IMG/VR virus record: IMGVR_UViG_3300040789_000013
Length of the DNA stretch: 38,758 nucleotides
Reading direction: 5' to 3' (one strand)
Source: a virus
The translations under genes and the position numbers were made by a program. Below the pieces are notes generated by a model. That model saw only the letters and a program-made list of their open reading frames with translations. It was not told where the DNA came from and searched no databases. Of the stretch, positions 8,497 to 36,646 are shown piece after piece. The first letter of the stretch is position 1, and each line of letters opens with the position of its first letter.

Positions 8497-8505
8497 TGTT
8501 ATCAT
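8497..8505 (+). promoter_or_regulatory. extended -10-like box TGTTATCAT, 7 nt upstream of ATG 8513 (leaderless-type spacing)
   Basis: It matches TGnTAnnAT, and the ATG sits where a transcription start would be expected. Confidence 0.45.
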
Positions 8506-8512
8506 AATTTTT

Positions 8513-9400
8513 ATGAGTGATATTAAACCAGTCCGACTATCAAACGTCGATTTTTGTGTCGCCGCTATGAGCGACAGTAAGGATGGGCTCGAGCGCTTGC
8601 TCCATTCGATCATAGACATTTATCCGACAGCTCGCATTATTGTGGCTGACAATGATCTCCAGTTAGATCGTAAGTATTACAAACAGCTCCGGAAAGATCT
8701 CGGAGAGGCCGGCCTCGTTAATCGATTGCAGGTCCACCACATCGCGTACCAGGCTGGTATCGCTGAGTCATTTAACCGACTCCTCTCACTATCACGATCT
8801 ACGTATCGTCTACTCCTTACTGATGAGGATGTGTTTACTGCTGAGACTGATGTAAAAAGCATGATCCGTACGATCGAGGCTAATAAGACAGTCGGCATCG
8901 TGTCAGGAGTGATCGGTGATGAGCGTCCTACTGCTGACGGTAAGCCTGTCGGTGATGAGGATCTCCGCTACTCACTAACAAAGCAAGCGACTCGGTTTAT
9001 GCTGGTCCAGGGAGATGTGATTAATTTCCTCCGGTTTGATCCAGACCATAAAAATCCGATTGTCGATTTTTGTACTCGAGCAGCTAAGCGACTGCCGTAT
9101 AAAATCGCTATTTCAGATGCAAGGATTACTAATGAGGTAATAAGTGATGATGACGATGAAAACGAAACGACCGGAGGGGACGATAACGGAGGCGCTGCCG
9201 GGACAGATCTACCGAGTGGAGATGATACCGGAAACGATGGACCAGGAGACGACGGAGACACTGGCGAGGATACAGGATCAGAAACAGCCGGGGACGATAC
9301 TAGCGTACGTAGCGGGCAAGATGAGGAGAGCCAGGATTCAGCTCCTAGTCGGCGATCGGGTGGAAATGGTACTCGATCCCGCCGGCGGCAAAACAACTAA
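8513..9400 (+). CDS. GT2-like glycosyltransferase with an 85-aa acidic Asp/Gly-rich low-complexity tail
   Basis: The N-terminal 205 aa or so show a GT-A pattern: ARIIVADND, AYQAGIAESFNRLL, and YRLLLTDEDVF (DxD-like). From about residue 209 the sequence is D/G/T/E low complexity. That segment is exactly the part overlapped by the IF-1-like ORF in another frame. Confidence 0.6.
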   Translation: MSDIKPVRLSNVDFCVAAMSDSKDGLERLLHSIIDIYPTARIIVADNDLQLDRKYYKQLRKDLGEAGLVNRLQVHHIAYQAGIAESFNRLLSLSRSTYRLLLTDEDVFTAETDVKSMIRTIEANKTVGIVSGVIGDERPTADGKPVGDEDLRYSLTKQATRFMLVQGDVINFLRFDPDHKNPIVDFCTRAAKRLPYKIAISDARITNEVISDDDDENETTGGDDNGGAAGTDLPSGDDTGNDGPGDDGDTGEDTGSETAGDDTSVRSGQDEESQDSAPSRRSGGNGTRSRRRQNN

Positions 9401-9422
9401 CCGGATTGTCTGGCGTAAATAA
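9144..9422 (+). CDS. infA: translation initiation factor IF-1 homologue (S1-like OB fold) with an insertion of about 20 aa
   Basis: EGTITEALPGQIYRVEM ... GTILAYVAGKMRRARIQLLVGDRVEMVLDPAGGKTTNRIVWRK aligns with E. coli IF-1 ([61 protein letters not shown]). GAGG lies at 9134..9137. Two in-frame TAA stops lie at 9138..9143. Candidate starts are GTG 9144 and ATG 9147. Confidence 0.7.
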   Translation: MMMTMKTKRPEGTITEALPGQIYRVEMIPETMDQETTETLARIQDQKQPGTILAYVAGKMRRARIQLLVGDRVEMVLDPAGGKTTNRIVWRK

Positions 9423-9430
9423 AAAGTAAT

Positions 9431-9454
9431 GCACACTCTCCGGAGTGTGTTTTA
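9431..9454 (+). terminator. rho-independent terminator
   Basis: The stem is CACACTC / GAGTGTG with a 4-5 nt loop, followed by TTTT. Confidence 0.65.
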
Positions 9455-9463
9455 CTATTAGTA

Positions 9464-9472
9464 TGATAATAT
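9464..9472 (+). promoter_or_regulatory. extended -10-like box TGATAATAT upstream of the SPFH gene (leader of about 20 nt)
   Basis: It matches TGnTAATAT and lies directly after the terminator. Confidence 0.4.
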
Positions 9473-9498
9473 GTAATCATATTAAGTAATAACGGTAT

Positions 9499-10305
9499 AT
9501 GTATAATCAAAATCAAAAAGGTAACGCGCTACTCGGTGGATTCATCGGTCTCGCGGTACTCGCTTTTATCGGATGGCTCTTTTTCTTTTTCCCGTGGTGG
9601 CCTACCATCATCAGTGATAAGGAGGAGGGAGTGGTAACAACACTCGGAGATATTAAGGAGGAGACTACTGGGACCGGTGTGTACTGGCGGTCACTATTCA
9701 TTACTCGTATCGATCGTATCGATATGCGAGAACGTACGCACACTATCAGCACTGAGACAGTCAGTAAGGAGGGTCTTAAGTTTGGTGTGGACATTACGGT
9801 CCGGTATGAGGTAAAGGATGAGGCCGCGATTAACCTAGTCACAAATCTACAGACTCCGCTGCATGAGCTGGTACTGACGTACGCTAATGCGACGATCGAT
9901 GATGTGGCGACGAGTAAAGATAAAAACGCGATGTACTCTGATGAGGGTCGTGTGGCTATCGTCCAGGCAGTAAAGGATAAGCTAAATACTGAGCTCGGTG
10001 CTTATGCACAAATTAACCAGGTAGTATTTGAGGACATCCGGCTCCCTGCTAGTATTACGCAAGCGATCGAAGCGCAACAGGCAGAGCTCGAGAAAGTGAA
10101 GCGGACAGAAAATCAGAAAGCGGTCGCTGAGAATGAGGCAGAGATCCGACGTATTGAGGCTCAGGGTATTGCTGACTCTAACCGGATCATCCAGAGCTCT
10201 CTTACTCGAGAGTACCTCCAGTACGAAGCGATCCAGAAATTTAATCCAGACGCGGAGAAAATCTATATCCCTAGTGATGCGATGACTCCGGTAATTAGTT
10301 ATTAA
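9499..10305 (+). CDS. SPFH / band-7 / prohibitin-family membrane protein
   Basis: There is an N-terminal TM helix (ALLGGFIGLAVLAFIGWLFFFF). An SPFH-like core follows (GVVTTLGDIK...VYWRSLFITRIDRIDMRERTH...GVDITVRYEV...FEDIRLPASITQAIEA), then a coiled coil (QQAELEKVKRTENQKAVAENEAEIRRIEAQG). Confidence 0.8.
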   Translation: MYNQNQKGNALLGGFIGLAVLAFIGWLFFFFPWWPTIISDKEEGVVTTLGDIKEETTGTGVYWRSLFITRIDRIDMRERTHTISTETVSKEGLKFGVDITVRYEVKDEAAINLVTNLQTPLHELVLTYANATIDDVATSKDKNAMYSDEGRVAIVQAVKDKLNTELGAYAQINQVVFEDIRLPASITQAIEAQQAELEKVKRTENQKAVAENEAEIRRIEAQGIADSNRIIQSSLTREYLQYEAIQKFNPDAEKIYIPSDAMTPVISY

Positions 10306-10309
10306 TTTT

Positions 10310-11656: not shown

Positions 11657-11662
11657 TACAAT
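11657..11662 (+). promoter_or_regulatory. -10-like hexamer TACAAT, 8 nt upstream of ATG 11671 (terS)
   Basis: The spacing matches the leaderless-type pattern seen at other genes. It has no canonical TGn extension. Confidence 0.35.
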
Positions 11663-11670
11663 ACGATTAT

Positions 11671-12261
11671 ATGAGCAGTAAGGCTAAAGGACGACGATCG
11701 CTGCCAATGCAGCGGACAGATAATAGAGAATTAGCGCCAGGGTACGAGGAGCGTCATCCTCAGTACTATGCCTATGAGCTAAATGATCCACACTTTCCAC
11801 CGATGGCTATTCGGTACTCGCATAATGCGTGGTGGATGGAAAAGTATAAACTCGAGAAGCTGATCGATGCGTATAAGATGCACTGTACAGATCTCGAGGC
11901 GTGCTACTTTGCTGGTATCACTAAGGCTCAGCTCCGCTACTTTAAAGATCTGCATCCAGAATTTAAAGAGATCCGAGAGCTCTGTAAACAGGAGCTCGGA
12001 TTTTATGCGCGTCAGAATGTGGCGCGAGATATCAAGTCCGGTAAGTATTCGCTCCGGTCCTGGGAGTATCTCCAGAAAAAGCATAAAGATGAGCTCGGTG
12101 ATTCTGTCGACGTTACGAGTGGCGGCAAACCGCTCAAAGCTCCGAGTAATGCTGTGGTGTTTATGGACTTTAGTAAACCGGACCAGCGAGAGCCGGAGGT
12201 GATCGATGCAGAAAAGATCCACGACGTTAATCCAGATACCGACGATGGAGAAAGTAAATAA
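11671..12261 (+). CDS. terS: terminase small subunit (putative)
   Basis: It lies immediately upstream of and overlapping terL. An HTH-like segment (CTDLEACYFAGITKAQLRYFKDLHPEFKEI) is typical of small terminases. The start is taken at ATG 11671; the GTG at 11644 lies inside the structured element. Confidence 0.55.
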   Translation: MSSKAKGRRSLPMQRTDNRELAPGYEERHPQYYAYELNDPHFPPMAIRYSHNAWWMEKYKLEKLIDAYKMHCTDLEACYFAGITKAQLRYFKDLHPEFKEIRELCKQELGFYARQNVARDIKSGKYSLRSWEYLQKKHKDELGDSVDVTSGGKPLKAPSNAVVFMDFSKPDQREPEVIDAEKIHDVNPDTDDGESK

Positions 12262-13522: not shown

Positions 13523-13531
13523 TGATATCAT
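13523..13531 (+). promoter_or_regulatory. extended -10-like box TGATATCAT, 8 nt upstream of ATG 13540
   Basis: It shows leaderless-type spacing and lies directly after the terL stop. Confidence 0.45.
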
Positions 13532-13539
13532 ATAATCAT

Positions 13540-13668
13540 ATGATAGGTAAATGGCTGTGTCGATTCGGACTACATCGATGGGGACATCGACATCGGAGAG
13601 GTAATAAATTTTATTGTCAGAGGATCTACTGTCATGTGAGTAGGCCCTGGCGCAAATCAGACAAATAG
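13540..13668 (+). CDS. small Cys/His-rich protein (42 aa; below the ORF-track cutoff)
   Basis: My own translation gives MIGKWLCRFGLHRWGHRHRRGNKFYCQRIYCHVSRPWRKSDK. The C-x-F-G-x-H-x-W start followed by a second Cys pair resembles small prophage zinc-ribbon proteins (DUF1660-like, from memory). Promoter-like box at correct distance. Confidence 0.4.
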   Translation: MIGKWLCRFGLHRWGHRHRRGNKFYCQRIYCHVSRPWRKSDK

Positions 13669-13669: not shown

Positions 13670-13867
13670 ATGGGACAGAAAAAACACAAAGCTGAGCGTA
13701 AGAAAATTCGTAAAGAGATCAGGGCGCAAGTCGGTGACAGCATGGGGATATTAAGCTCGATAGTGCGGCCACGTCCTCAGTGGATACCTAAAAAAGTATG
13801 GGTCTGGTTTTACCTCCCTGTCTTTCCTAAGAAATATCTGCATATCGTTTACAAGTACCTGGACTAG
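13670..13867 (+). CDS. hypothetical small basic protein
   Basis: 65-aa ORF starting 1 nt after the previous stop. Confidence 0.4.
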   Translation: MGQKKHKAERKKIRKEIRAQVGDSMGILSSIVRPRPQWIPKKVWVWFYLPVFPKKYLHIVYKYLD

Positions 13868-13869: not shown

Positions 13870-13878
13870 TGGTATTAT
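13870..13878 (+). promoter_or_regulatory. extended -10-like box TGGTATTAT, 7 nt upstream of ATG 13886 (portal)
   Basis: It shows leaderless-type spacing. The same 9-mer recurs at 15908. Confidence 0.4.
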
Positions 13879-13885
13879 TTTAGGT

Positions 13886-15901
13886 ATGAGTTATCTAGGT
13901 GATCTATATAAAAAGGCCAGCGGTTTCATTAACGCTAAAAGTTACATGGGCATCCTGGCCGGTAACTTGCCGTCATCTACTCGCTGGAGTAATAATGATT
14001 TTTTAAATTCGCTCGACATCAGTCTCTATACTAATCGGGCAATCGCAAAGCGAGCAGAGAAAGTCGGAGAGATCGAGTGGGTGGTAAAAGACAAAAACAG
14101 TGAGCCGATTCTCGGTCACAGTATCCTCGACGTACTCAATTACCCTAACAAGTATTACAGCGGCGCTAAGTTCTGGAGTCTGTATCAGATCTACTATGAC
14201 GTGCTCGGTGTGTCGTACATCGTTAAGGATGTGGGCTTAAAACGTTTCTCTAGTGGTGTCGAGCCACTCGAGGGTCTCCACTTATTGCGTCCGGATCTCG
14301 TGACTCCGATTTTTTCAGCTGATAACAGTTGGATCATTCGATACGAGTACCGTCTTAATGGATCTGTCGTGCCGTATGAGCCGGAGCAGATTATCATGGT
14401 GTTTAATCCGGATCCTAAAAATCCACTCCGCGGCTGGTCACTACTTAAAGCTGGTATCCAGGCAATCCAGACCGAGGTGCAGATTTCCGCGTACCATGCT
14501 CGAGTGCTCGAGAATGGTGGTAAGGTCGAGGGTGTCTTTAAATTCAAAACGCCACGACTTACTCAGGAGCAACTCCAGCAGCTAAAAGATGGATACGATC
14601 AAGATTATGCGGATGCCCGGAAAACAGGTAAGCCGCTTTTCCTCGGTGGTGATGCTGACTATGTAAAGACTGGTCTCTCTCCGGATGAGCTCTCATATCT
14701 CGAGGCTAAGAAAATGACACTGGAGGATATCTCGATGATGACGGGGGTACCTAAAGTTATTCTCGGATCAGCTGACGAGATCCAGTACTCTAACTCGGAC
14801 AGTTTATATCGTATCTTTTTGCGCGAGACTATTCGGCCGCTCCTTTCAAACCTAGCGACAGCACTCGATCGCACGCTGGTACCAGAGGGAGAGACGCTGA
14901 CGTTTGTCGATCCTACTCCAGAAAACATCGAGGAGAAATCGAAGCTAATCGAGATGGCGATCGATAAGCACATCATCTCTACTAATGAGGGACGTATGAT
15001 GCTGGCTAAGCTAACCGGTGAGCAGCTCGACGATGTGCCAGGCGGTGAGCATATTCTCATCCCGTTTAACCTCATCCGTCTCGACTCTGATCTCTCTGCT
15101 GGTACTGATACCGAGACAGATAAAAAAAAAATTAAGTCATCAGAGATAGCGCATCCACTCCGGGACGCGACGGTCCGTAAGAAATACGGCAAGGCTCAGG
15201 ATAAGAAAAATGAGCGCAATATGGTCCGCTTTAAAAAGCCACTCGTAACGTATTTCGAGGAGCAGCGGGATCGGATCATCGAGCAACTCAGTCCGGAGAA
15301 AAATTACGTATTTCGTAAAAAAGATCTGATCGATAGTGCGATGAACATCGAGCTAGAGGTAAAGCTCGGTAAGGAGGCATTTTTACCGATGCTGACAGAG
15401 ATCCTTAAAGAGTCCGGGCAGGATGCTATGGAGCTCGCTGGATCGACGTACGCATTTAATCTCACATCCGATATCGTTTCCTGGATGAACACTCGGACCG
15501 AGGTATTTTCTCGGACCATTAACGAGACTACGTTCGGTCAGTTAAAAGATGAGTTTACTATTTCACTTGCTGAGGGTGAGTCCCGGGAGCAACTGATTAG
15601 ACGTATCGAGGATACTTACGATAATAAAATTACTAAGGCTCGAGCTACGACGATCGCTCGGACCGAGGTCCATAATGCAAACCAGAAAGGCACGATCGAG
15701 GGATATCGCCAGGGTAATCTGCCGATTAAAATCTGGGTGTCTGTTCTCGATGGTGCGACTCGAAACAATGCCGAGGCGGATCATGTGTCGCTCGATGGTG
15801 AGGAGGTCCCGCTCGATAGTCCGTTTAGTAATGGTCTGATGTATCCGGGTGATCCGCGTGGAGGACCGGCGGAAGTTATTAACTGTCGATGTGTCGTTTA
15901 A
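13886..15901 (+). CDS. portal protein fused to a MuF/SPP1 gp7-like minor head protein domain
   Basis: The N-terminal 400 aa or so are portal-like in position and length after terL. The C-terminal 230 aa or so carry the MuF signature (ARATTIARTEVHNANQKGTIEGYRQ ... AEVINCRCV). Confidence 0.8.
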   Translation: MSYLGDLYKKASGFINAKSYMGILAGNLPSSTRWSNNDFLNSLDISLYTNRAIAKRAEKVGEIEWVVKDKNSEPILGHSILDVLNYPNKYYSGAKFWSLYQIYYDVLGVSYIVKDVGLKRFSSGVEPLEGLHLLRPDLVTPIFSADNSWIIRYEYRLNGSVVPYEPEQIIMVFNPDPKNPLRGWSLLKAGIQAIQTEVQISAYHARVLENGGKVEGVFKFKTPRLTQEQLQQLKDGYDQDYADARKTGKPLFLGGDADYVKTGLSPDELSYLEAKKMTLEDISMMTGVPKVILGSADEIQYSNSDSLYRIFLRETIRPLLSNLATALDRTLVPEGETLTFVDPTPENIEEKSKLIEMAIDKHIISTNEGRMMLAKLTGEQLDDVPGGEHILIPFNLIRLDSDLSAGTDTETDKKKIKSSEIAHPLRDATVRKKYGKAQDKKNERNMVRFKKPLVTYFEEQRDRIIEQLSPEKNYVFRKKDLIDSAMNIELEVKLGKEAFLPMLTEILKESGQDAMELAGSTYAFNLTSDIVSWMNTRTEVFSRTINETTFGQLKDEFTISLAEGESREQLIRRIEDTYDNKITKARATTIARTEVHNANQKGTIEGYRQGNLPIKIWVSVLDGATRNNAEADHVSLDGEEVPLDSPFSNGLMYPGDPRGGPAEVINCRCVV

Positions 15902-15916: not shown

Positions 15917-15937
15917 TTATAATGTTAGTATAATCGT

Positions 15938-16885
15938 ATGGCAAAAGTAAGACTAAAAGTAGGAGAGAAAGCAATCACATCGATGCCGGTATCCGTTAAG
16001 GCAATCGATAAGGAAAATTTCCGCCTTACGATGGTGGCCTCCACTCAAGACGTAGACCGTCACGGTGATACCGTCCTACAGGCAGGATGGGATATTAAGC
16101 CGTTTGGTAAAAATCCAGTTATCCTAAACTCACATAATTACTACGACGCTACTGAGGTTATCGCTCGAGCAGAAAATACTCGCGTCGAGGGTAAGGGTAA
16201 GCGAGCGAAGCTGATCCAGGAGTGGGTATTTGCTGTTAACGAAAATCCAAAAGCTAAAATCATTTTCGATCTGTATGCTGGTGGTTTCCTACACGCCTCA
16301 TCAGTCGGATTTATCCCGCGCAAGTTTGCAGAAAAGCCAGACGGATCTCGTGACTGGTTTGTAATCGAGCAAGCTGAGCTACTCGAGGTATCAGCTGTAT
16401 CAGTACCAGCTAATGCTATGGCTCTCGCTAAGAGTAAGGGTATCGCTGTCGATGAGCTCCCGGAGGAAATGATCGACGAGGACGAGATCGAGGACGACGG
16501 AGCTGGAGATAAAGATCATTTTGCGGAAGCTGAGGAAATGAACGAGGAGGAGGAAACTGAGGAAACCGGAGAGGATGAGGAGACAGCTGAGGACGAGGGG
16601 GTCGAACCAGATCCAGAGGAGCAGGAGCCAGAAGTCGTAACCGATAGTGTTGCTGATCTGCCAGCGTTCCGGCCGACTAAAAGCCAGCTCCAGAAAAAAG
16701 CTGCTGTCCGCGTTCTCCACAGTCTTAACGACCGGGAGGAGAAAGCACTCCGAGCGACGTATGATACAATCGGGAAAATGCTGCATGGGGATAAGTATAA
16801 AAACTTAGACCGTCGGACCAGACAGAAAGCTCAGCGACGAGATTATAACTCTGTCATCCGCAAGCTCCTCAAAGGCAAACGATAG
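15938..16885 (+). CDS. HK97-family prohead serine protease (S78) with an acidic, scaffold-like C-terminal extension
   Basis: DVDRHGDTV, NSHNY, HASSVGFIP and ELLEVSAVSVPANAMA match the S78 His/Ser motif layout. Residues from about 170 to 240 are extremely Glu/Asp-rich. Confidence 0.8.
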   Translation: MAKVRLKVGEKAITSMPVSVKAIDKENFRLTMVASTQDVDRHGDTVLQAGWDIKPFGKNPVILNSHNYYDATEVIARAENTRVEGKGKRAKLIQEWVFAVNENPKAKIIFDLYAGGFLHASSVGFIPRKFAEKPDGSRDWFVIEQAELLEVSAVSVPANAMALAKSKGIAVDELPEEMIDEDEIEDDGAGDKDHFAEAEEMNEEEETEETGEDEETAEDEGVEPDPEEQEPEVVTDSVADLPAFRPTKSQLQKKAAVRVLHSLNDREEKALRATYDTIGKMLHGDKYKNLDRRTRQKAQRRDYNSVIRKLLKGKR

Positions 16886-17051
16886 TACACCACAGTATAA
16901 AGTGATGATAAGCGTAGAGAGGTAGGGTCGTTAAATCGACCGGCTCCGCAAGGACCATAACAATACCTCTACTTTAGATCAGGGATGGTCGATACCCCGT
17001 ACGCCGGGCATCTAAAATATCAATTTACTAGGTATTAAGTATCGACTACTT

Positions 17052-18410
17052 ATGAACAAATTTAAGAAATTTGTAAAAACTCTGCTCGAACGCGGTTACG
17101 CTACCGAGGCTGAAAAAGAAAAGGCTGCTGGTCTTTTCAAGGCTCTCGATGAGGATGATCGCGATGAAGTGGCGACCGATGCTGAGACCGTTGCGGACCT
17201 ACCGGAAAGCGCGGAGGAAGCTGAGGAAGCTGCCGAGGAGGACGAGGAGATCGACGACGAGAATGTAGAAAAGGGCATCAAAGCTCTATTCTCTCGCGAG
17301 GGTAAGCGCATCGAAAAGTCTCTCGAGACTAAGCTCGATGGGTATATGGCTGATATGAAAGAGGCTATGGCTAGTAAAGCCGGTGTCTATCATCCAGACG
17401 TACAGGCGAAGCGTAAGGAGCTTAACAGCACTTTGCGTAAGACTGTATCCGCACTGATCTCTAACGATACTGCTGCTCTTAAGGAAATGACGACCGATGA
17501 CTCTGGATCGCCGTACGCTGGTTACACAGTGGACAGCGAGCTCAGTGCAGAAATTCGTCATCTCATTACTGAGTACGGTGTCGCTCGTCGTGAGATGGAA
17601 AACGTACAGCTTACTAAAGGCTCGTACAAGGTTAATGATCTGGTCACAGACGTTACCGTGTACTGGGTTGAAGAGGGAGCTGTCGTAAATTCTACTCAAG
17701 CCGTATTAGGTCAGGAGACTCTAACTCTCAAGAAACTCGGTGCCATCGTAACGATGACATCAGAGCTGCTCGAGGATTCAGAGATCGACCTTATCTCATT
17801 TATGGCCAGTCGTGTTGCGGAGGGATTCGCACAGGCTGAGGACGAGGCGTTCTTTAAGGGTGATGGTACGTCTGCATACGGTGACTTTACTGGACTCCTC
17901 GAGGCTAGTGATGTTAACGAAGTGACAATGGGATCAGGTGATACTGGTTTCAATGACATGGATGCTGACGACTTGCTCGACATGCAGGACGCTACCCCAC
18001 AGGGAGCACTTGCTAACGGTAAGTACTACTACCATCGCACTATCAAGAGCATTGTGCGTAAGCTCAAAGCTACTGACGGCACATACATCTACCAGGCTCC
18101 GTCTCAAAATGGTCCAGCGACCGTTTGGGGATCTCCGGAGGTATTGGTGGAGGCTATGCCAGCTATCGGTGACTCTGCTGCTGAAACATCTTTCGTACTG
18201 TTTGGTGATTTACGTAAGGCGTGTATCTTTGGTTACAAGGGTGCTATTAAAGCTAAGCGATTCGATGCCGGTGAAGTTCGCAACGTCGCGGATGACGCTA
18301 ACATCAATCTCATCACTACAGATCGAGAGGCTGTACGCTGGACTCAGCGAGTCGGTTACGTGCGTGTTATCCCACAGGCCGTAACTAAGCTCACTACTGC
18401 TGCACCTTAA
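17052..18410 (+). CDS. major capsid protein, HK97 fold
   Basis: It has an N-terminal acidic coiled-coil delta-like region. The core contains LKKLGAIVTMTSELLEDSEIDLISFMASRVAEGFAQAEDEAFFKGDG, typical of HK97-family capsids. A strong terminator follows. Confidence 0.85.
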   Translation: MNKFKKFVKTLLERGYATEAEKEKAAGLFKALDEDDRDEVATDAETVADLPESAEEAEEAAEEDEEIDDENVEKGIKALFSREGKRIEKSLETKLDGYMADMKEAMASKAGVYHPDVQAKRKELNSTLRKTVSALISNDTAALKEMTTDDSGSPYAGYTVDSELSAEIRHLITEYGVARREMENVQLTKGSYKVNDLVTDVTVYWVEEGAVVNSTQAVLGQETLTLKKLGAIVTMTSELLEDSEIDLISFMASRVAEGFAQAEDEAFFKGDGTSAYGDFTGLLEASDVNEVTMGSGDTGFNDMDADDLLDMQDATPQGALANGKYYYHRTIKSIVRKLKATDGTYIYQAPSQNGPATVWGSPEVLVEAMPAIGDSAAETSFVLFGDLRKACIFGYKGAIKAKRFDAGEVRNVADDANINLITTDREAVRWTQRVGYVRVIPQAVTKLTTAAP

Positions 18411-18441: not shown

Positions 18442-18462
18442 GCTCCCTCCGGGGAGCTTTTT
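18442..18462 (+). terminator. rho-independent terminator after the capsid gene
   Basis: The stem is GCTCCC / GGGAGC with loop TCCG, followed by TTTTT. Confidence 0.7.
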
Positions 18463-18465
18463 GTG

Positions 18466-18474
18466 TGATATCAT
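18466..18474 (+). promoter_or_regulatory. extended -10-like box TGATATCAT, 6 nt upstream of ATG 18481
   Basis: It shows leaderless-type spacing immediately after the terminator. Confidence 0.45.
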
Positions 18475-18480
18475 ACTGAT

Positions 18481-18882
18481 ATGGTTTTTCAAGAAAAAGA
18501 GCTCGAGACGGGAGGGTATGAGTACAAGGTCCAGGATGTCTTTGGTGAGATGATTTTTACGTCTGATATAAAACTAAGCGGCGACAAGCTCGACGGTATG
18601 GTATCCTTATTACTAAGACAGGGACACAATGCGGAAACCGTCCAGGGGGAGGTTAAGCATGATACCGGTACTGTCACTTATAAATTTACTAAGGAGCCTC
18701 AATGGGCCGACGTTCCTCCAGAGGAGGAAAAAGAATGGGACGAACCATGCGAAAATACACCTACATCGACAAAAGAAACGGAAAGCGTGTTTACTCAGAT
18801 AAACCGCTTAATAAGCCGTATCTGGAAAAAGCTACAGAGGTCCGTGGTAGCGTTCCGCAAGGCATGGAAAAATCCGGAGTAA
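18481..18882 (+). CDS. hypothetical protein
   Basis: 133-aa ORF. Its 3' third is overlapped by a second coding-looking frame (see 18747..18929). Confidence 0.5.
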   Translation: MVFQEKELETGGYEYKVQDVFGEMIFTSDIKLSGDKLDGMVSLLLRQGHNAETVQGEVKHDTGTVTYKFTKEPQWADVPPEEEKEWDEPCENTPTSTKETESVFTQINRLISRIWKKLQRSVVAFRKAWKNPE

Positions 18883-18930: not shown

Positions 18931-18939
18931 TGCTAATAT
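18931..18939 (+). promoter_or_regulatory. extended -10-like box TGCTAATAT, 6 nt upstream of ATG 18946
   Basis: It shows leaderless-type spacing. Confidence 0.4.
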
Positions 18940-18945
18940 ATACCT

Positions 18946-19515
18946 ATGGCAACATTTACTTTTTCACTCCAGGGATCGAGCGATACCACAGTAGGCGCGA
19001 CTGATGTTTTACAGTTTGCGGGTGCAGCTGGTTTCGATTCTAAAATTACTGTAGGAGAATATAACGACAGTACTCACGTTAAATCATCAGGCGGAGCTAA
19101 TGACTCATCTGGTAACACTCCTAACAATGTTAAATTTATCTCACAGTCAGGCGGTACTGGTGGTGACTCACAAGCTGACTGGGGAGACGGTACCGAGGAT
19201 CTCGATGCGATCACTGATGCGGAATGTACACTCGAGATTAATTTCTCTGACGCTGCATCTGTTACTACAGAAAGCGCAATCTTTTACGCTTACGATGGAT
19301 CTACTACTACATCAGCTCCGACCGGTATCACGTTTGTAGCTGCCGAGGGAGGTGATACTAACTGGACCGCTGCCGAGGGATCTGGATCTGCTCTAGCACT
19401 TGCGGACCAGTCAGCAGCTACGTCTCATAATTTCTACGTCGCCGTATCTGCATCTCCGGACAGCGTAGGATTAAAAGACTCATTTACACTCCGATGTGAG
19501 CTAACGTACTCTTAA
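18946..19515 (+). CDS. hypothetical structural protein (Ser/Thr/Gly/Ala-rich, beta-like; possible decoration protein)
   Basis: 189-aa ORF directly downstream of the capsid region. The call rests on position only. Confidence 0.5.
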   Translation: MATFTFSLQGSSDTTVGATDVLQFAGAAGFDSKITVGEYNDSTHVKSSGGANDSSGNTPNNVKFISQSGGTGGDSQADWGDGTEDLDAITDAECTLEINFSDAASVTTESAIFYAYDGSTTTSAPTGITFVAAEGGDTNWTAAEGSGSALALADQSAATSHNFYVAVSASPDSVGLKDSFTLRCELTYS

Positions 19516-23983: not shown

Positions 23984-23992
23984 TGATATACT
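23984..23992 (+). promoter_or_regulatory. extended -10-like box TGATATACT, 8 nt upstream of ATG 24001
   Basis: It shows leaderless-type spacing. Confidence 0.4.
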
Positions 23993-24000
23993 ATAAACAT

Positions 24001-25615: not shown

Positions 25616-25636
25616 AGGGCAGTGTATACTTAACCT

Positions 25637-26068
25637 ATGGCAGATGCTGAAGTAAGAGTTATCGGGATTAAAGAAATCCGAGCAGCGATTAAACGAAACC
25701 CTCGAAAGGTCCGGGAGGAGGGTGGTAAGTTCCTCGTGCGAGCAATGGCTAAGTATAAGTCCGGCATCATTAATAATCCCTGGACTGTAAATAGTAAGGG
25801 CGGTGGTGCTCCAGTCGATACGCACAATCTTCGGGATACTCATAAGACCCAGATTCAGGGTCTCACTGGTATTATCGGTCCGGATGAGCAAGCTGCTCCA
25901 TACGCTAAATATGTCCACGGTAATAAAAAGACCCCGGTTAAGGTGAAAGGAACTCGGAACTTTAAGACTCGTCCGTGGCTCGATTATGTGTATAAGCAGA
26001 AAGATGCGGAGGTCGAAGAGCTATATCGTGATATGCTTAGTGTAATAACAAAAGACTTAGCTGCTTAG
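25637..26068 (+). CDS. HK97 gp10-like tail completion / neck protein
   Basis: ...APVDTHNLRDTHKTQIQ...GPDEQAAPYAKYVHG fits the gp10-family pattern (aPvdTG.LR.s......YA.yvE.G). It is preferred over the antisense ORF 25514..25918. Confidence 0.6.
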   Translation: MADAEVRVIGIKEIRAAIKRNPRKVREEGGKFLVRAMAKYKSGIINNPWTVNSKGGGAPVDTHNLRDTHKTQIQGLTGIIGPDEQAAPYAKYVHGNKKTPVKVKGTRNFKTRPWLDYVYKQKDAEVEELYRDMLSVITKDLAA

Positions 26069-27556: not shown

Positions 27557-27579
27557 AACCGCTCTATAGCGGTTTTTTG
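27557..27579 (+). terminator. rho-independent terminator after the major tail gene
   Basis: The stem is AACCGCT / AGCGGTT with loop CTAT, followed by TTTT. Confidence 0.7.
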
Positions 27580-27586
27580 TGTAGTA

Positions 27587-27595
27587 TGATAAAGT
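27587..27595 (+). promoter_or_regulatory. extended -10-like box TGATAAAGT, 8 nt upstream of ATG 27604
   Basis: It shows leaderless-type spacing after the terminator. Confidence 0.35.
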
Positions 27596-27603
27596 GTAAT
27601 CAT

Positions 27604-27819
27604 ATGGATAAGAAATCACCAGAAGAGACGGCAGAAGCCATTACTGAGTGGGGTAAGAAAATGACGTGGGGAGTGACTCTTCCGATTTTTCTCTTCGTGC
27701 TCGGTATCTTCACAATGCCGGTCGGACTGCTATTCTGGATTCTGGGTCTCATTATGTTTTTAACAACCTTTAGTAAATCAATAGAAAACTATGCCAGTAC
27801 TCAAAAAGAGAGAGACTAA
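27604..27819 (+). CDS. small membrane protein (two predicted TM helices)
   Basis: MDKKSPEETAEAITEWGKKMTWGVTLPIFLFVLGIFTMPVGLLFWILGLIMFLTTF... The start is set at ATG 27604 rather than the TTG at 27577. Confidence 0.45.
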   Translation: MDKKSPEETAEAITEWGKKMTWGVTLPIFLFVLGIFTMPVGLLFWILGLIMFLTTFSKSIENYASTQKERD

Positions 27820-28114: not shown

Positions 28115-28290
28115 AAGCTCGAGTCTGTCGTGAGTTCGGGTGGACCGAAGCTGAGTTCGACCAGGGCAATACCTGGGATTTTATAGACGTTATACTGGAG
28201 ATGATGGAGGAAGAAGCTAAACAAAATGCTAGAATAAAAGCATATGGCGGAAAGTCGAAAGCTGAACATCATCCTCGACCTCGTAAATAA
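27791..28290 (+). CDS. tail assembly chaperone frameshift product (gpGT-like; -1 shift at 28075..28081)
   Basis: The -1 frame extension reads FFSKTADRNWLRVKARVCREFGWTEAEFDQGNTWDFIDVILEMMEEEAKQNARIKAYGGKSKAEHHPRPRK. It has a gpT-like character and ends inside the start of the tape measure gene. Confidence 0.55.
28075..28081 (+). promoter_or_regulatory. -1 programmed frameshift slippery heptamer T TTT TTA
   Basis: The zero-frame codons are AGT TTT TTA, an X XXY YYZ pattern. The -1 frame stays open from here to the TAA at 28288..28290. Confidence 0.65.
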
Positions 28291-31878: not shown

Positions 31879-31887
31879 TGCTACAAT
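31879..31887 (+). promoter_or_regulatory. extended -10-like box TGCTACAAT, 6 nt upstream of ATG 31894
   Basis: It shows leaderless-type spacing and is identical to the 9-mer at 7882. Confidence 0.4.
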
Positions 31888-31893
31888 GTCAGT

Positions 31894-32367
31894 ATGTTAG
31901 AAAGTTTTGCACTAAAAGGAGAGGTTAAATGGATTAAGACTCGAGGAGGTATTCTCGTCGCTGAGTCTCCCTGGATGCAGAACCAGATAGTCTCAGGCGA
32001 TGAGCTAGGACTATCTATTGTCCTCGACCGGCTGGCGTCTATCAATACTCATAGTCTGAACATAACGCACGCTGAAATGGGAGATAGTAATACACCAGCA
32101 GAAGCGTCTGATACGGCTCTCGGTAATGCTCTCGTTCGAGCTCAGGTCGGAGCTGTCAGCCGGTCAGGTCTGTCGGTAGATTTTCGATTCTTCTTTCCGG
32201 ATGCACTGACTCCGGATGACGACTATGAAGAGTTTGGTATGTATATCGATGGAGCTGCTGGACTAGAAACTGGACAGCTATTTAATCATCTTGTCTATAG
32301 TACGACACTCAGTAAAAATACTGGAGAAGACCATACTGTCGTATGTAGAGTCACTGGAAGCGTGTAG
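31894..32367 (+). CDS. hypothetical tail protein
   Basis: 157-aa ORF in the distal tail block. Confidence 0.5.
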   Translation: MLESFALKGEVKWIKTRGGILVAESPWMQNQIVSGDELGLSIVLDRLASINTHSLNITHAEMGDSNTPAEASDTALGNALVRAQVGAVSRSGLSVDFRFFFPDALTPDDDYEEFGMYIDGAAGLETGQLFNHLVYSTTLSKNTGEDHTVVCRVTGSV

Positions 32368-32373
32368 TATAAT
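32368..32373 (+). promoter_or_regulatory. -10 hexamer TATAAT, 6 nt upstream of ATG 32380
   Basis: It is a consensus hexamer with leaderless-type spacing and no TGn extension. Confidence 0.35.
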
Positions 32374-32379
32374 AATTTT

Positions 32380-33912
32380 ATGGCTAAGAAAGCACAACCA
32401 GACGTAACAGTAAGAGCTGACCACTTCATCCAAAACCAGGACCGAGACCCTGGAAACGATGACGGTCGAGTTCCGGTTCTCGAGGACGTAAGCGAACGTC
32501 TCCATAACTCGTTTATCGATTATCACTCTGGCGGAGATGGTTCCGACGGAGCTCTTAATGTTACTGGTGAGACTATTCTTAATGCTGGTCAGGTATACCA
32601 GTACACGTCTGTAACTATCGGAGCGACCGGTGTACTTAAGTTCGTCGGAGATGGTCCAGCTATTATTCTCTGTCAGGGAGATTTTACAATGGCAGCAGGA
32701 GGTGTTATCGATACTCGCTTCGCTGCTCTCGCTCCAGTGAACACTGCTCTTAATGGTTTTCTTTTCACTTCACGCCAGGCACGTCTAGCAAACGATACAC
32801 TCGGTCTCGGTGCTCCAGAAAATACTGGCGGTTTTACATACTCAGGACACGGCGGTAAGGGAGGTGATGACGGTACGACTGCTCCGAGCGATGGAGCTGG
32901 TGGTGCGAAAGGTATCTCGACCTCTACTGAAAATCAGCAAGCCGGACACGGTGGACCAGGTAATAACGGAAACGGTACGACCATCGGAGGCGGTGGTGGA
33001 GGAGGCGGTGGAGCCGAAGACGACATAAATAATAATGCGACTGCTGGTCAGACTGCTACGGATAAAAACGGTGGTGATGGTGGTGATGGCTCAGACTCAT
33101 CTGGTAACAGCGGAGGAAACGGTGGTAACGGCGGAGGCGGTGGAGCCGGTGTCGATGATGGTAACGGCGGTAACGGAGGTAACGGAGGTAACGGAGACGA
33201 CCGCAACTCTGGAGACGGTGGTCGTGGTGGAAACTCTGGACAGAACGGAGGTAATGGTGGTAATGGTGGAAACGGTCTCGATGGTGGTAACGGAGGCGAT
33301 GGCTTCGTGAACGGTGGTAACGGTGGTAACGGTTACTCTACTAATAACAACCGAGGACACGGAGGCGATGGTGGAGATGGTCGTACCGGAGTCGGAGGTA
33401 ATGGTGGAAACGGAGGCTCAGGCTTTAACGATGACGCTGGAGACGGAGGCGATGGTGGAAACGGAGGTATCAGTGGCGGTAATGGAGGAAGTGCGACAGA
33501 CGGCTCAGGTAGTGATGGTCCAGGTCCGCACGGAGGTAATGGTGGTAACGGAGTCAGTGGTATCGTTCCTCTTTATGTCGTCGTTCTCGGTAATCTGACG
33601 CTCGATGGTACTATCGAAGCTAAAGGAGGTGACGGTGGGGACGGAGGTATAGGTAGTACTGGAACCTCACCAGGGACTCACGGTGACGGTGGAAATGCTG
33701 ACGACGGTGGAGATGTTATTTTCCTCCATTATGGAAGCTACACTGATAACGGAGTAGTCATTAATAACCAGGGAGGTACTGGTGGAACGCCTGGCAATAA
33801 CGGAGCTCCGAGCATAAATATCTCAACTGGTGACGTAACTGTCCTCCCAGGACGATATGGTAAGGACGGTATCGACGGACGCACAATCATCACCACTCCT
33901 ATACTAGTTTAA
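32380..33912 (+). CDS. glycine-rich (GGN/GGD repeat) fibre or receptor-binding-like protein
   Basis: 510 aa. A beta-rich N-terminal domain is followed by about 190 aa of [17 protein letters not shown] repeats and then a beta-rich C-terminal domain. It is the last structural gene before the lysis cassette. Confidence 0.6.
32986..33560 (+). repeat. in-frame GGT AAC GGN-type low-complexity repeat encoding the Gly/Asn/Asp tract
   Basis: GGTAACGG(A/T)GG-like units are iterated. They generate long shadow ORFs in the other frames and on the opposite strand. Confidence 0.7.
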
Positions 33913-33923: not shown

Positions 33924-33932
33924 TGCTACCAT
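33924..33932 (+). promoter_or_regulatory. extended -10-like box TGCTACCAT, 6 nt upstream of ATG 33939
   Basis: It shows leaderless-type spacing at the start of the lysis cassette. Confidence 0.4.
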
Positions 33933-33938
33933 ATACGT

Positions 33939-34217
33939 ATGGATACGCTTAAAGGATTTTCAGTCGGAATAACCATCGGTGCTATCATCGGTGGTTATTT
34001 CGGGTATAACTACGGTCTTAAGGTGAGTGGTGAGAAAATGACTCGACCAGAGTTCCGGATAGTTTTTGCTAGTGTTGTACTGGCTATATGGGGTACTGCT
34101 CAGCTAATGGGTCTGCTTTTTAACACTGAAGTAGACCCCTGGCTTAATACCATTACTGGTATCGTAGTAGGATTCTTTTACGGAGATGGTATCGTAGAGA
34201 AGTATAAGGGTAAATAG
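33939..34217 (+). CDS. holin candidate (small protein with 3 hydrophobic segments)
   Basis: 92 aa with three TM-like stretches and a charged C-terminus (EKYKGK). It lies upstream of the endolysin. Confidence 0.45.
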   Translation: MDTLKGFSVGITIGAIIGGYFGYNYGLKVSGEKMTRPEFRIVFASVVLAIWGTAQLMGLLFNTEVDPWLNTITGIVVGFFYGDGIVEKYKGK

Positions 34218-34710: not shown

Positions 34711-34712
34711 TG

Positions 34713-34721
34713 TGCTATCAT
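34713..34721 (+). promoter_or_regulatory. extended -10-like box TGCTATCAT, 8 nt upstream of ATG 34730
   Basis: It shows leaderless-type spacing. Confidence 0.4.
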
Positions 34722-34729
34722 ATAAACAT

Positions 34730-35896
34730 ATGAAAGCAAACCCTATCCACTACTACTGTCTAGTCGATAAGTCAGACAGAAACTGGAGGAGACGATTAAA
34801 AGCGTTCCAGAACGAGATGGAACGGACTCACTCGTGTACGTTCACAGTCGAGGGATTCGATGCTGAGAAAATTGAGTGGACTGACCGTCGAGAGCGACTG
34901 TATGCTTCTGACGATTTTGTTTTTTCTCACACGAACCGTATCTATAAAGAGCACGGTAAAAAAGTCGATGCGGTTAAGTTCTTCGTTTCAGAGGATAACT
35001 GGAAGCAGGGTAAGTATCGATTGAAAGGTTTTAAGCTCGGTCGTATTTTCGATGGTTACTACGTGACGTTTACCCGGCTACGTTACGCTAAAGATACCGG
35101 AGAGCACGAAGCTCTCCATCTCGTAGATGAGTACATTAAAGCGAACACTGGAGTCTCTCTCGAGGTAGTGTTTAAAGTCGATGACTTCGATGACGATATC
35201 GTTCACTCAGAGAAATACTGGAAAGACCAGGATTATAAATACGATGTAGTCTGGGATAAAATCGCTGACCATCTCAGTAACGCTGTCTACCAGCGACGCC
35301 AGGGGACGTTCACGAACCGTATCGCTATGATGCAGCTAGTGATTAAGTTACTGCTTCAGAAGATACAGTTACTCGAGTATAAGAGTAATTCTATTTATGA
35401 GGTGGAAATCCGGGAGCGTCATACGACTAAGTTTACTGACCGTCCGCTGCTAGCGGAGAACGCTATCATCGGTCATATTGACCTGGGGACTGAAGCCGGG
35501 ACCATTAACGAAATCCTTAATGGTACAAAGTCAGCCAGCTACCACTGGTATATCCCTCGTCACGCTAAGTATGTCATCGAGTTTGTACCGAAAGAAAAGA
35601 CAGCCTGGCACGCTGGACGTCTCAGTAATCCGGAAGCTGGGCTGGCTAAGCTCCTCGGTGGTCCGAACGAGCGTATCGAGTCCGGAGAGCCTAATAACTA
35701 TGCGTACGGGATCTGTTATGAGGGCATCGATGCAAACACTCCGCCTAATGATGAGCAGATCGATCTCGCTGCTCAGCTAATGCGCCGCAAAAAGATCCAC
35801 ACGCTCCCGGTGGTAGCACACTACCAGGTGACGGATTATAAGCCGCGCATCGTGTCGAGGTTTGTGGAGGGTATTAAAAAAATTGTAAACAAATAA
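34730..35896 (+). CDS. endolysin: C-terminal N-acetylmuramoyl-L-alanine amidase (Amidase_2/PGRP) with an N-terminal domain carrying HExxH
   Basis: The C-terminus shows IIGHID, SASYHWYIPR, TAWHAG, YAYGICYEG and VVAHYQVTDYK, the Amidase_2 pattern. The N-terminal domain contains GEHEALHLVDE (HExxH). The start is set at ATG 34730. Confidence 0.75.
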   Translation: MKANPIHYYCLVDKSDRNWRRRLKAFQNEMERTHSCTFTVEGFDAEKIEWTDRRERLYASDDFVFSHTNRIYKEHGKKVDAVKFFVSEDNWKQGKYRLKGFKLGRIFDGYYVTFTRLRYAKDTGEHEALHLVDEYIKANTGVSLEVVFKVDDFDDDIVHSEKYWKDQDYKYDVVWDKIADHLSNAVYQRRQGTFTNRIAMMQLVIKLLLQKIQLLEYKSNSIYEVEIRERHTTKFTDRPLLAENAIIGHIDLGTEAGTINEILNGTKSASYHWYIPRHAKYVIEFVPKEKTAWHAGRLSNPEAGLAKLLGGPNERIESGEPNNYAYGICYEGIDANTPPNDEQIDLAAQLMRRKKIHTLPVVAHYQVTDYKPRIVSRFVEGIKKIVNK

Positions 35897-35899
35897 TTT

Positions 35900-36163
35900 A
35901 TGGAGTCATTACTTTTGTTAGCGGTACCGATTATCGCCTCACTACTTACACAACTGGTAAAGTCTATCCAGTCGATAAAATTCTCGAGCGCTAAGTCAGC
36001 TATCCTCCGGGTAGTGGCCGCGACGCTCTCGTTTATCGGTGTGGTTATACTGAACATCGCTAATGGTGAGCCGGTGCCGCTCGATCAGATTAACGTCTAT
36101 GCAGAGGCCCTGGTCGCTTTTTTCGCCACTCAGGTACCGTACTGGTTAGCTAAAAACAAATAA
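35900..36163 (+). CDS. small membrane protein (holin/spanin-like)
   Basis: 87 aa with 2-3 hydrophobic helices. It is the last gene before a strong terminator. Confidence 0.5.
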   Translation: MESLLLLAVPIIASLLTQLVKSIQSIKFSSAKSAILRVVAATLSFIGVVILNIANGEPVPLDQINVYAEALVAFFATQVPYWLAKNK

Positions 36164-36177
36164 AGTCGACCACATAG

Positions 36178-36210
36178 AAAAAATCCCGGGTAACAATCCG
36201 GGATTTTTTC
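36178..36210. terminator. rho-independent (potentially bidirectional) terminator ending the late operon
   Basis: The stem is ATCCCGG / CCGGGAT with an 8-nt loop, flanked by an A6 run and a T6 run. Confidence 0.7.
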
Positions 36211-36345
36211 TCAGCTGTGGATCTCTAAAAAATAAATGTGTGTGATCCTAACCCGCTCTTTTCGAGCAAAATGTGTACCCGCAACGGCTCAACAGGTACA
36301 TTTATATAATACCAGATGAGTACGTACAGTTATTAACAGTATGTT

Positions 36346-36361
36346 AATATGATATCGTATT
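36346..36361. promoter_or_regulatory. AATATGATATCGTATT near-palindrome containing extended -10-like TGATATCGT (36350..36358), 6 nt upstream of ATG 36365
   Basis: It differs by one base from the perfect 16-bp palindrome at 38543. It shares the flanking GTTAATATGATATC with the 5978 copy. Confidence 0.4.
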
Positions 36362-36364
36362 ACT

Positions 36365-36646
36365 ATGGTATATTGTAAATATATGAAACGGCACGAAATC
36401 ATTTACGAGCTCGCTAAGTACGCTCATCCGTCGTGGTATCACGATCTACTGAGCTGGAAAACATGGCAGCTTAAAATTTTACTGGATTATTATAAAAGAG
36501 ACATCGCGGATAACTACCAGACTCATGTAGGTATTGATCTGGCCGCTGATATCGAGGAGGGACGACTTAAGGACACTCAAAGCGTCGCTAATGGTTTTGT
36601 AGAGGGTAAAGTACTCTACACTAAGTCTGAGCGCGTAGCAGAATAA
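36365..36646 (+). CDS. hypothetical early protein
   Basis: 93-aa ORF. An alternative ATG lies at 36383. Confidence 0.5.
   Translation: MVYCKYMKRHEIIYELAKYAHPSWYHDLLSWKTWQLKILLDYYKRDIADNYQTHVGIDLAADIEEGRLKDTQSVANGFVEGKVLYTKSERVAE

Follow-up and report, generated by a model that had tools for sequence, protein, structure and literature searches.

Extended -10 boxes at a fixed short distance from start codons in a Shine-Dalgarno-free phage genome as putative promoters of leaderless and near-leaderless mRNAs

How genes are started in the near absence of Shine-Dalgarno (SD) sequences is the question raised by the virus record IMGVR_UViG_3300040789_000013 of IMG/VR. The whole stretch of DNA that was analysed, 38,758 nt and here called the window, carries hexamers of the -10 type (TAnnnT, often extended to TGnTAnnnT) which repeatedly stand 6-8 nt ahead of an ATG. 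The original prediction had listed 13 such triplets of box, spacer and ATG and had read them as promoters of a largely leaderless gene set; all 13 were found exactly as written. From the letters of the boxes and their placement, we consider it likely that they are extended -10 promoters of the host σ70, which would give leaderless mRNAs (6-nt spacer) or mRNAs with leaders of 2-3 nt (8- and 9-nt spacers).

The counts were made on 53 gene starts, which were taken as the first ATG of each long open reading frame (ORF) and set without regard to the boxes. TGnTAnnnT was observed 6 nt from the start in six cases, 7 nt in two and 8 nt in five, with none at 0-5 or 9-10 nt, and the plain hexamer TAnnnT gave 11, 2 and 8 cases at 6, 7 and 8 nt against about 1-2 at each other position. 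When the whole window was scanned for TGnTAnnnT-N6-8-ATG, 18 copies were obtained on the plus strand and 0 on the minus strand, whereas 300 dinucleotide shuffles contained 1.8±1.4 copies with a maximum of 6; the fixed distance that had been claimed is clearly beyond chance. The box itself, wherever it stands, was found 71 times on the plus strand against 30 on the minus strand, and TGnTAnnAT 30 against 5 times. A frequency table anchored on the ATG, into which no motif was put, showed A at -11 in 35, T at -12 in 24 and T at -7 in 23 of the 53 starts, G was depleted from -13 to -5, and T at -1 was present in 47 of 53, in agreement with the AT-rich context ending in T-ATG that had been described.

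AT-rich intergenic DNA, together with TAA or TAG stops that lie within 20 nt of many starts, might be thought to mimic TAnnnT. This explanation was tested and rejected, and hardly any weight is left to it in view of the excess over shuffled sequence, the 18:0 strand asymmetry, the sharp 6-8 nt window, a TG at 72-78% of boxes against 10% elsewhere, and the replication and conservation of the pattern in relatives. The start-adjacent boxes were thus confirmed as real, and not an effect of chance or composition.

About 19-20 of the 53 genes have a start-adjacent box, and all boxed genes start with ATG. The boxes are given below as box, spacer in nt and ATG position, with the bases next to the box or at the spacer end in parentheses.

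1886..1900, plus strand: TACAAT, 6 nt, ATG 1898; non-extended; the A at position 7 past the hexamer coincides with that of the ATG
8241..8257, plus strand: TACGAT, 8 nt (..GAT), ATG 8255; non-extended; preceded by a terminator at 8194-8215
8497..8515, plus strand: TGTTATCAT, 7 nt, ATG 8513 of a GT2-like gene
11657..11673, plus strand: (GTG)TACAAT, 8 nt (..TAT), ATG 11671 of the small terminase
13523..13542, plus strand: TGATATCAT, 8 nt (..CAT), ATG 13540 of a 42-aa ORF, after which comes a coupled 65-aa gene at 13670
13870..13888, plus strand: TGGTATTAT, 7 nt, ATG 13886 of the portal gene with MuF
15923..15940, plus strand: TGTTAGTAT, 6 nt, ATG 15938 of the prohead protease/scaffold; absent from the original prediction
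18442..18483, plus strand: hairpin terminator (18442-18457) and T-run, TGATATCAT, 6 nt, ATG 18481
18931..18948, plus strand: TGCTAATAT, 6 nt, ATG 18946
23984..24003, plus strand: TGATATACT, 8 nt (..CAT), ATG 24001
25622..25639, plus strand: (G)TGTATACT, that is (G)TG-TATACT, 6 nt, ATG 25637; non-extended
ATG 26545, plus strand: weak TAAATT, 8 nt; non-extended
27557..27606, plus strand: terminator (27557-27574) and T-run, TGATAAAGT, 8 nt (..CAT), ATG 27604
28227..28246, plus strand: TGCTAGAAT, 8 nt (..CAT), ATG 28244; likewise not listed before
31879..31896, plus strand: TGCTACAAT, 6 nt, ATG 31894
32365..32382, plus strand: (GTG)TAGTATAAT, with TATAAT as hexamer, 6 nt, ATG 32380
33924..33941, plus strand: TGCTACCAT, 6 nt, ATG 33939
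34713..34732, plus strand: TGCTATCAT, 8 nt (..CAT), ATG 34730 of the Amidase_2 lysin
36350..36367, plus strand: TGATATCGT, 6 nt, ATG 36365; inside a palindrome at 36345-36362, with a hairpin and T-run at about 36185-36210 upstream

The anatomy of the box was determined from 18 boxes aligned on the hexamer, the search pattern itself having set positions 1, 2 and 6. At position 5, 14 of the 18 have A, while positions 3-4 are free. One base upstream of the hexamer a TG was frequent (T in 13/18, G in 14/18), as compared with 71 of the 689 TAnnnT of the whole window (10%), and G or R often stands before that TG (GTGn). An A was located 7 nt after the hexamer in 15 of the 18 boxes, with C or T before it in nearly all. 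For spacers of 6 nt this A coincides with the first base of the ATG, whereas all 8-nt spacers end in AT (CAT, TAT or GAT) and have the A two bases ahead of the start codon. No conserved column at the -35 distance was observed within the 10 nt upstream that were aligned, and no -35 element was seen by eye further upstream. Full -35/-10 promoters were not enriched either (24 against 26.2, and 19 against 24.9, in shuffles), as is expected because the proposed promoters are -35-independent. The pattern is typical of extended -10 elements that σ70 recognises independently of a -35, with a purine start 7 nt downstream, and not of RNA-RNA pairing.

On this basis, each of the approximately 19-20 genes would stand behind a (R)TGnTAnnnT promoter of the host-σ70 type without a -35 element, and RNA polymerase would take the purine 7 nt past the hexamer as its first base. 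In about 10 genes, those with a 6-nt spacer, the mRNA would begin with the AUG itself and be truly leaderless; in about 8 genes with an 8-nt spacer transcription would begin two bases earlier and give 5'-AUAUG, which is near-leaderless and not strictly so, and the 9-nt spacers found in relatives would give a 3-nt leader. The proposal of -10 promoters at leaderless distance was thus supported by the extended -10 anatomy and the placement of the boxes, and has to be amended for the 8-nt class, which probably carries a 2-nt leader.

The main rival is that the boxes work at the RNA level, either as a pseudo-SD pairing with an altered 3' tail of the 16S rRNA or as an A/U-rich enhancer or standby site. 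Such a signal would be at home at 6-8 nt, the usual SD distance, and would fit with Parcubacteria of which some have no canonical anti-SD, so that their tail might have another sequence; the T at -1 of boxed genes also suggests that the upstream bases are present in the translated mRNA. What makes it improbable is the pattern of conservation, in which hexamer positions 1, 2 and 6 and the upstream TG are kept and positions 3-4 are free, as in σ70 promoters and not as in base-pairing, and in which a conserved G is found within an otherwise G-depleted region. The box is also missing from 20 tightly coupled genes that would need an SD just as much, and it does occur at distances of 11-34 nt from starts in expected promoter regions, on either strand where genes diverge, and after terminators.

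The genes without a box were then set beside the boxed ones by the length of the gap upstream. With a gap of at least 12 nt, 19 of 27 plus-strand genes are boxed; of the 20 genes that overlap the one before or follow it by at most 8 nt, a single one is boxed, and weakly; altogether 20 of the 48 plus-strand genes are boxed. In those 20 tight genes the gaps run from -29 to +8 nt and are mostly 1-4 nt (e.g. TAGT-ATG), which leaves no room for a promoter-defined 5' end, and they therefore cannot be leaderless. This arrangement suggests coupled re-initiation for the unboxed tight genes (about 60%), in which ribosomes would start again after terminating at a preceding stop that is at most 8 nt away or overlaps; a few further genes would be read from SD-less AT-rich leaders. 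The description of the gene set as largely leaderless could not be upheld, as about 19-20 of 53 genes are boxed, the rest are tight or overlapping, and the capsid gene is leadered.

Eight gapped genes have no start-adjacent box, among them the VapE-like gene (box at 11 nt), the Band_7 gene (box at 26 nt) and the capsid gene.

17022..17054, plus strand: major capsid start 17052, with an AT-rich SD-less leader, T at -1 and no box

The capsid gene follows a gap of 166 nt (16886-17051), and its SD-less AT-rich leader is likewise found in relatives. In the same gap, some 60-70 nt before the capsid ATG, stands a block with GGTCGA that recurs in diverged relatives; it may be an RNA element or a remnant of the scaffold C-terminus.

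Terminators were confirmed ahead of the boxes at 18442-18457 and 27557-27574, as had been predicted, and others lie ahead of 8255 and 9499; only 3-4 boxed genes come after a terminator. The promoters could therefore be real while most of the protein is made from read-through polycistronic mRNAs, with box placement set by short gaps and leaderless transcripts marginal. This is favored by the few terminators between units and by T at -1 in 20/20 boxed genes; the SD-less leaders of the capsid and Band_7 genes show, moreover, that the host can initiate internally. Packing into short gaps predicts, however, that other spacers occur as well, and none was present at 0-5 or 9-10 nt in the window or at 0-4 or 10-15 nt among 166 starts of relatives. 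The A is kept exactly 7 nt past the hexamer whatever the spacer class, and boxes stay 6-8 nt from the ATG despite intergenic gaps of 63-274 nt (11671, 18481, 18946, 27604, 28244 and 36365). We thus regard read-through as an unlikely account of the placement, though a less unlikely one than an RNA-level signal.

Boxes of the same type were also found at greater distances from a start.

6036..6058, plus strand: TGTTATAAT, 11 nt, ATG 6056 of the VapE-like gene; same box type, with a short predicted leader of about 4-5 nt
5949..5992, minus strand: TGATATCAT, about 34 nt upstream of ATG 5949; heads the leftward replication operon (primase, PIF1 helicase)
9464..9501, plus strand: TGATAATAT, 26 nt before ATG 9499 of the Band_7 gene; follows a bidirectional terminator at 9431-9450; leadered and SD-less
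38542..38591, plus strand: palindrome TAATATGATATCATATTA, 33 nt upstream of ATG 38589; extended -10 (38547) on both strands

The minus-strand box at 5992 is divergent from the box at 6036, and the boxes at 11, 26, 33 and about 34 nt all sit in divergent or post-terminator intergenic regions where promoters are expected; it follows that the box is not tied to translation starts as such. Ahead of Band_7, the string TGATAATAT-GTAATCAT-ATT at 9464-9484 mirrors TGATAAAGT-GTAATCAT-ATG at 27587-27606. From this resemblance the 9464 site looks like a former start-adjacent promoter whose ATG has turned into ATT, Band_7 beginning 17 nt further on.

The 18-bp palindrome TAATATGATATCATATTA was found at six sites with at most 3 mismatches, against 0.03 expected: 38542-38559 (perfect), 1832, 5980, 9467, 34708 and 36345, each in one of the main intergenic or promoter regions. 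The palindrome may serve as an operator that overlaps bidirectional promoters. Since its palindromic core TGATATCA is shared with boxes, several of which read TGATATCAT, the boxes as a whole could be taken for binding sites of a phage regulator. The core is present in only about a third of the boxes, though, and TACAAT, TAGAAT, TACCAT, TAAAGT, TAATAT and TATACT have the -10 invariants alone in common; an operator overlapping a promoter is, besides, a normal arrangement that adds to a promoter reading and does not replace it. That the boxes are operators instead of promoters is accordingly very improbable.

With promoters at the boxes as the preferred reading, the translation side was considered. 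Between -20 and -5, a single one of 48 starts has an SD-like 4-mer, while random intragenic windows gave 10.2±2.7; the genes are in essence free of Shine-Dalgarno sequences, as the original prediction had it. Two exceptions had been named. For ORF 7928 the GAGAGGA is present before an internal in-frame ATG, and the ORF itself is unsupported; the infA-like gene with GAGG was not recovered, no translation-factor gene (infA/IF1-like or other) having been found among the window ORFs tested with Pfam.

T at -1 was found at 20/20 boxed and 23/28 unboxed starts, as compared with 24% of non-start ATGs and 36% of the internal ATGs that are in frame. As genes with no room for a promoter show it just as strongly, this T is probably a translation signal rather than a signal of the transcription start site (TSS). 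Quadruplet pairing of tRNAfMet, between U(-1) and A37, is reportedly treated by Esposito et al. 2003. The pairing of U(-1) with A37 of tRNAfMet boosts initiation in E. coli (Höllerer and Jeschek, 2023, PMC10018350), the effect being documented only in E. coli and chloroplasts. The likeness lies in a U directly 5' of the start codon, present here at 89% of starts; the difference is that U(-1) modestly modulates SD-led genes in E. coli, whereas the start signal proposed here would hardly do without it. By pairing with A37 of the initiator tRNA, U(-1) would extend the codon-anticodon contact to four base pairs, making up for the missing SD and supporting all modes of initiation, and the 5'-AUAUG transcripts of the 8-nt class would still hold this U. 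Against pure U:A37 pairing, the -1 base at 32 called starts of L031/L035 (a Paceibacterota contig with GC of 58%) was C in 17 and T in 10, which makes the family-wide feature a pyrimidine at -1 and not U specifically.

The comparison with related phages, which the original prediction had proposed, was carried out on 29 IMG/VR relatives with 52-80% capsid identity. Of 312 starts, which were called crudely, 71% have T at -1 and 13 have an SD-like motif. For the spacers, 166 distinct starts from relatives of at least 61% capsid identity were counted; extended -10 boxes stood at 5 nt once, 6 nt 17 times, 7 nt five times, 8 nt nine times and 9 nt four times, with none at 0-4 or 10-15, and the A at position 7 was present in 13/13 of the 8- and 9-nt spacers. 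The spacing was thus replicated, and orthologous starts were found to keep a box though the letters of the hexamer change, as is listed below by window start.

GT2-like start: TGTTATCAT-7 in the window, TGATACAAT-6 in L017, TGGTATTAT-6 in L012
Small terminase start: TACAAT-8 in the window, TGATAATAT-6-ATG in L012 and L004, TGTAGAAT-7-ATG in L017 and L018, all with the same N-terminus
13540 start: TGATATCAT-8(..CAT)-ATG kept in L010 and L012 after the TerL stop; the 42-aa ORF and L023 have a common C..G.HRW motif
Portal start: TGGTATTAT-7 in the window, TGTTACAAT-6-ATG in L020, TGGTATTAT-10-ATG in L009
18481 start: at least 8 distinct relatives have unrelated hairpin stems after the capsid gene and keep the same order, namely hairpin, T-run, (G)TG-n-TATCAT/TATTAT, 6-9 nt, ATG
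18946 start: TGCTACAAT-6-ATG in L017
24001 start: TGATATACT-8 in the window, TGCTACAAT-8(..CAT)-ATG in L011, TGCTATAAT-9-ATG in L015
25637 start: TGGTATACT-7/8 in L011 and L002, TGCTATACT-6 in L018, TGCTACAAT-6 in L023
27604 start: TGATACAGT-8(..CAT)-ATG in L011

The more distant L024-L030, L031, L033 and L040 are SD-free with a pyrimidine or T at -1, and boxes are largely missing from them.

The relatives also bear on the choice of start codons. For the small terminase the automatic caller began 12 codons late (11707), and the box-adjacent ATG 11671 corresponds to the conserved N-terminus; for the lysin it began 29 codons late (34817), and the ATG at 34730 is supported by 388-aa lysins of relatives that cover 100% of the query. 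Both ATGs had been chosen as starts in the original prediction, and the two cases point to systematic mis-calling of starts in SD-free, leaderless genomes. In one relative (L021, 62% capsid identity), a tRNA with anticodon CAT was observed at 12974-13047, with an unpaired C1·A72, which is the hallmark of bacterial initiator tRNAs, and A37, and without the three G-C pairs of the anticodon stem. A phage-borne initiator-like tRNA would bear on SD-less initiation.

To which host this start context belongs was approached through the large terminase (TerL), which has more than 1,300 homologues. Relatives at 50-57% identity were found on an 85.6-kb Candidatus Paceibacterota contig and a 146-kb Moraniibacteriota contig, both from metagenome-assembled genomes, and in Patescibacteria-group and Saccharibacteria bins; other homologues are on an unlabelled 215-kb contig and on scattered phage-sized contigs binned elsewhere. 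These links came from the TerL alignment; the capsid protein gave no match against GTDB genomes, and lysin homologues were found only on phage-sized contigs, with no host homologues. A 126-kb 'bacterium' contig (JBAXVQ010000001.1, L038/L039) carries two TerL copies exactly 36,043 bp apart, probably through mis-assembly of a 36-kb phage as a concatemer. In contrast to the other members of the family, L038 has a clear SD (ordinary GGAG/GAGG) at 16/29 starts; as it comes from a different lineage, its use of SD indicates that the start context follows the host.

Host DNA was reached via the FtsK-like gene of the Paceibacterota-contig phage (L031) and its homologues. Prophages with this FtsK module adjoin secE-nusG-rplK (L047/L050) and infA-rpsM-rpsK-rpsD-rpoA-rplQ-rplM-rpsI (L049), and the L048 prophage lies beside central-metabolism genes of an NCBI 'Patescibacteria group bacterium'. 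An SD-like 4-mer was present in only 2 of 31 prophage-flanking host genes, ribosomal-protein genes included, and the -1 base was T in 13, A in 12, C in 5 and G in 1. Since the relatives' likely hosts, Patescibacteria, thus have no SD on housekeeping genes, the suggested SD-independent host strategy is reasonable, while its extension to the boxes found no clear excess in those genes. At L047/L050 (7053-8573), the prophage comes right after secE-nusG-rplK and rplA (uL1) is missing there; the operon may have been split by the prophage, or else the host is one of the uL1-lacking Parcubacteria. Of the 16S rRNAs of Parcubacteria only 48% were found to have an anti-SD motif, with losses in a subgroup, and the lineages without anti-SD reportedly overlap with those that have no uL1 (Tsurumaki et al., 2022, PMC9297842). 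Taken together, these links suggest that the host of the phage may well belong to Patescibacteria. Other hosts were considered and rejected: Bacteroidota are an SD-poor lineage, yet their promoters have a different -7 element (TAnnTTTG) of a type not seen here, and Actinobacteria and Deinococcus were set aside because their leadered genes keep SD.

The explanation as a whole, in which an SD-free genome that would mirror the SD-free state of its host combines start-abutting promoters, re-initiation and U(-1), is on present evidence probably right. Motif, spacing, statistics, conservation, SD depletion and the SD-free host genes beside module-sharing prophages are observed, whereas that the boxes drive transcription, where exactly the 5' ends lie, what U(-1) does and which host this clade has are inferred. 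Several observations weigh against it. The capsid gene, which encodes the most abundant protein, has no box, and T(-1) is kept even in the 6-nt class, where a leaderless mRNA would not contain it. With few terminators, most boxed genes are also readable from upstream transcripts, and the leaderless form could be minor. On the host side, TAnnnT was found at 5-9 nt in 6/31 host genes, with no clear excess, and T(-1) in just 42%. The host-flanked prophages (L047-L049) have no TerL kinship to the window and are linked only via the L031 FtsK-like gene, so that they support the host assignment only indirectly, and the close clade comes from marine or aquatic viromes without a host link, the host proposed for it being taken from relatives. 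One lysin homologue, from the close relative QDP67619.1, is from Tara station 072, mesopelagic, <0.22 µm fraction.

The genome that carries these starts is of the siphophage type. The first and last 21 nt of the record are identical (1-21 = 38738-38758), and an ORF from ATG 38589 crosses the circular junction and ends at 423, the '64-423' ORF being only its tail; this terminal identity and the spanning ORF show the contig to be circular and complete, with about 38,737 bp. It was taken from SRR7428122 as assembled by Logan. The identified genes include the following.

12245-13519: large terminase (TerL)
13886-15901, plus strand: portal with MuF domain
15938-16885, plus strand: prohead protease
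17052-18410, plus strand: HK97-fold capsid protein
34730-35896, plus strand: Amidase_2 lysin

PIF1 helicase and primase-like genes are on the minus strand, and VapE-like, Band_7, GT2-like and HNH endonuclease genes were also identified; a homing-endonuclease-like gene (NUMOD4 and HNH_3) at 36651-37025 is close to the lysis/early junction. After the VapE terminator, about 450 nt (7400-7850) are without a convincing ORF and contain repeated GTTACAGT(G) units, with TGTTACAGT at 7592 (plus), 7679 (minus) and 7432 (minus); these repeats may be iterons or an origin. No tRNA was found in the window, and no Rfam family matched there. The structural-region DNA had no match among 50,697 phage records, and at the protein level the best TerL match among phage records was an uncultured spring virus at 38% identity, which leaves no cultured relative or host at hand.

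Leaderless initiation is documented mainly in Actinobacteria, Deinococcus-Thermus and archaea, and leaderless genes of D. deserti were reportedly described by de Groot et al. 2014. In Deinococcus-Thermus, a -10 motif adjacent to about 30% of ORFs suffices as a promoter, no -35 being needed, and the resulting mRNA is leaderless (Zhong et al., 2025, PMC12340547). The arrangement is similar in that TAnnnT lies few bp upstream of the start, at about 30% of ORFs there and about 36% here. It differs in that the remaining genes there have a normal ribosome binding site, whereas here SD is essentially absent, the boxes are mostly extended (TGn), U(-1) is near-universal and the likely host phylum is another. 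Among phages, most middle and late mRNAs of Thermus phage φYS40 are leaderless, as summarised in PMC3594737 (Sevostyanova et al., 2007). That phage, as far as the summary goes, is likewise one whose leaderless mRNAs are translated by the host apparatus, leaderlessness here being predicted; it is a large Thermus myovirus reported to shift host levels of the initiation factors IF2/IF3, no sequence relationship with the window is apparent, and no translation-factor gene was found in the window. A leaderless transcriptome of M. tuberculosis is said to have been reported by Cortes et al. 2013. In Actinobacteria, and in 'group C' of GeneMarkS-2, a -10 box likewise lies about 6-8 nt before an ATG or GTG, with the TSS at the start codon; leadered actinobacterial genes keep SD, and these genomes differ in GC content and in the use of GTG, whereas all boxed starts here are ATG.

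The SD-poor Parcubacteria resemble the window in having no SD pairing and in A/T-rich, G-poor start regions, seen also in the prophage-flanking host genes; the study of Tsurumaki et al. (2022, PMC9297842) covers the rRNA side only, and the grammar described here is that of the mRNA side. No paper that gives such an mRNA-side grammar for the Candidate Phyla Radiation (CPR), or that links CPR, Patescibacteria or Saccharibacteria, or their phages, with leaderless mRNAs, was found in a literature search. The principle that a -10 box beside an ORF gives a leaderless mRNA is known elsewhere; what would be new is its appearance in a phage of a probable Patescibacteria host group. Box-aware start prediction would better annotate a large family of uncultured phages (more than 1,300 TerL homologues), and the SD-free context could serve as a signal for host prediction, as a relative from another lineage switches to SD. 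CPR/Patescibacteria have reduced ribosomes, and a subgroup of Parcubacteria is without anti-SD. We put forward tentatively, as a possibility that is still doubtful, that the phage displays the start-site grammar of anti-SD-less Patescibacteria, in which start-abutting extended -10 promoters and re-initiation would go together with a near-obligatory U(-1):A37. The grammar is explicit and testable: an extended -10, 6 or 8 nt, ATG; U(-1); and stop-start gaps of at most 8 nt. If it is true, a whole superphylum and its phages would use an initiation mode that is thought to be ancestral.

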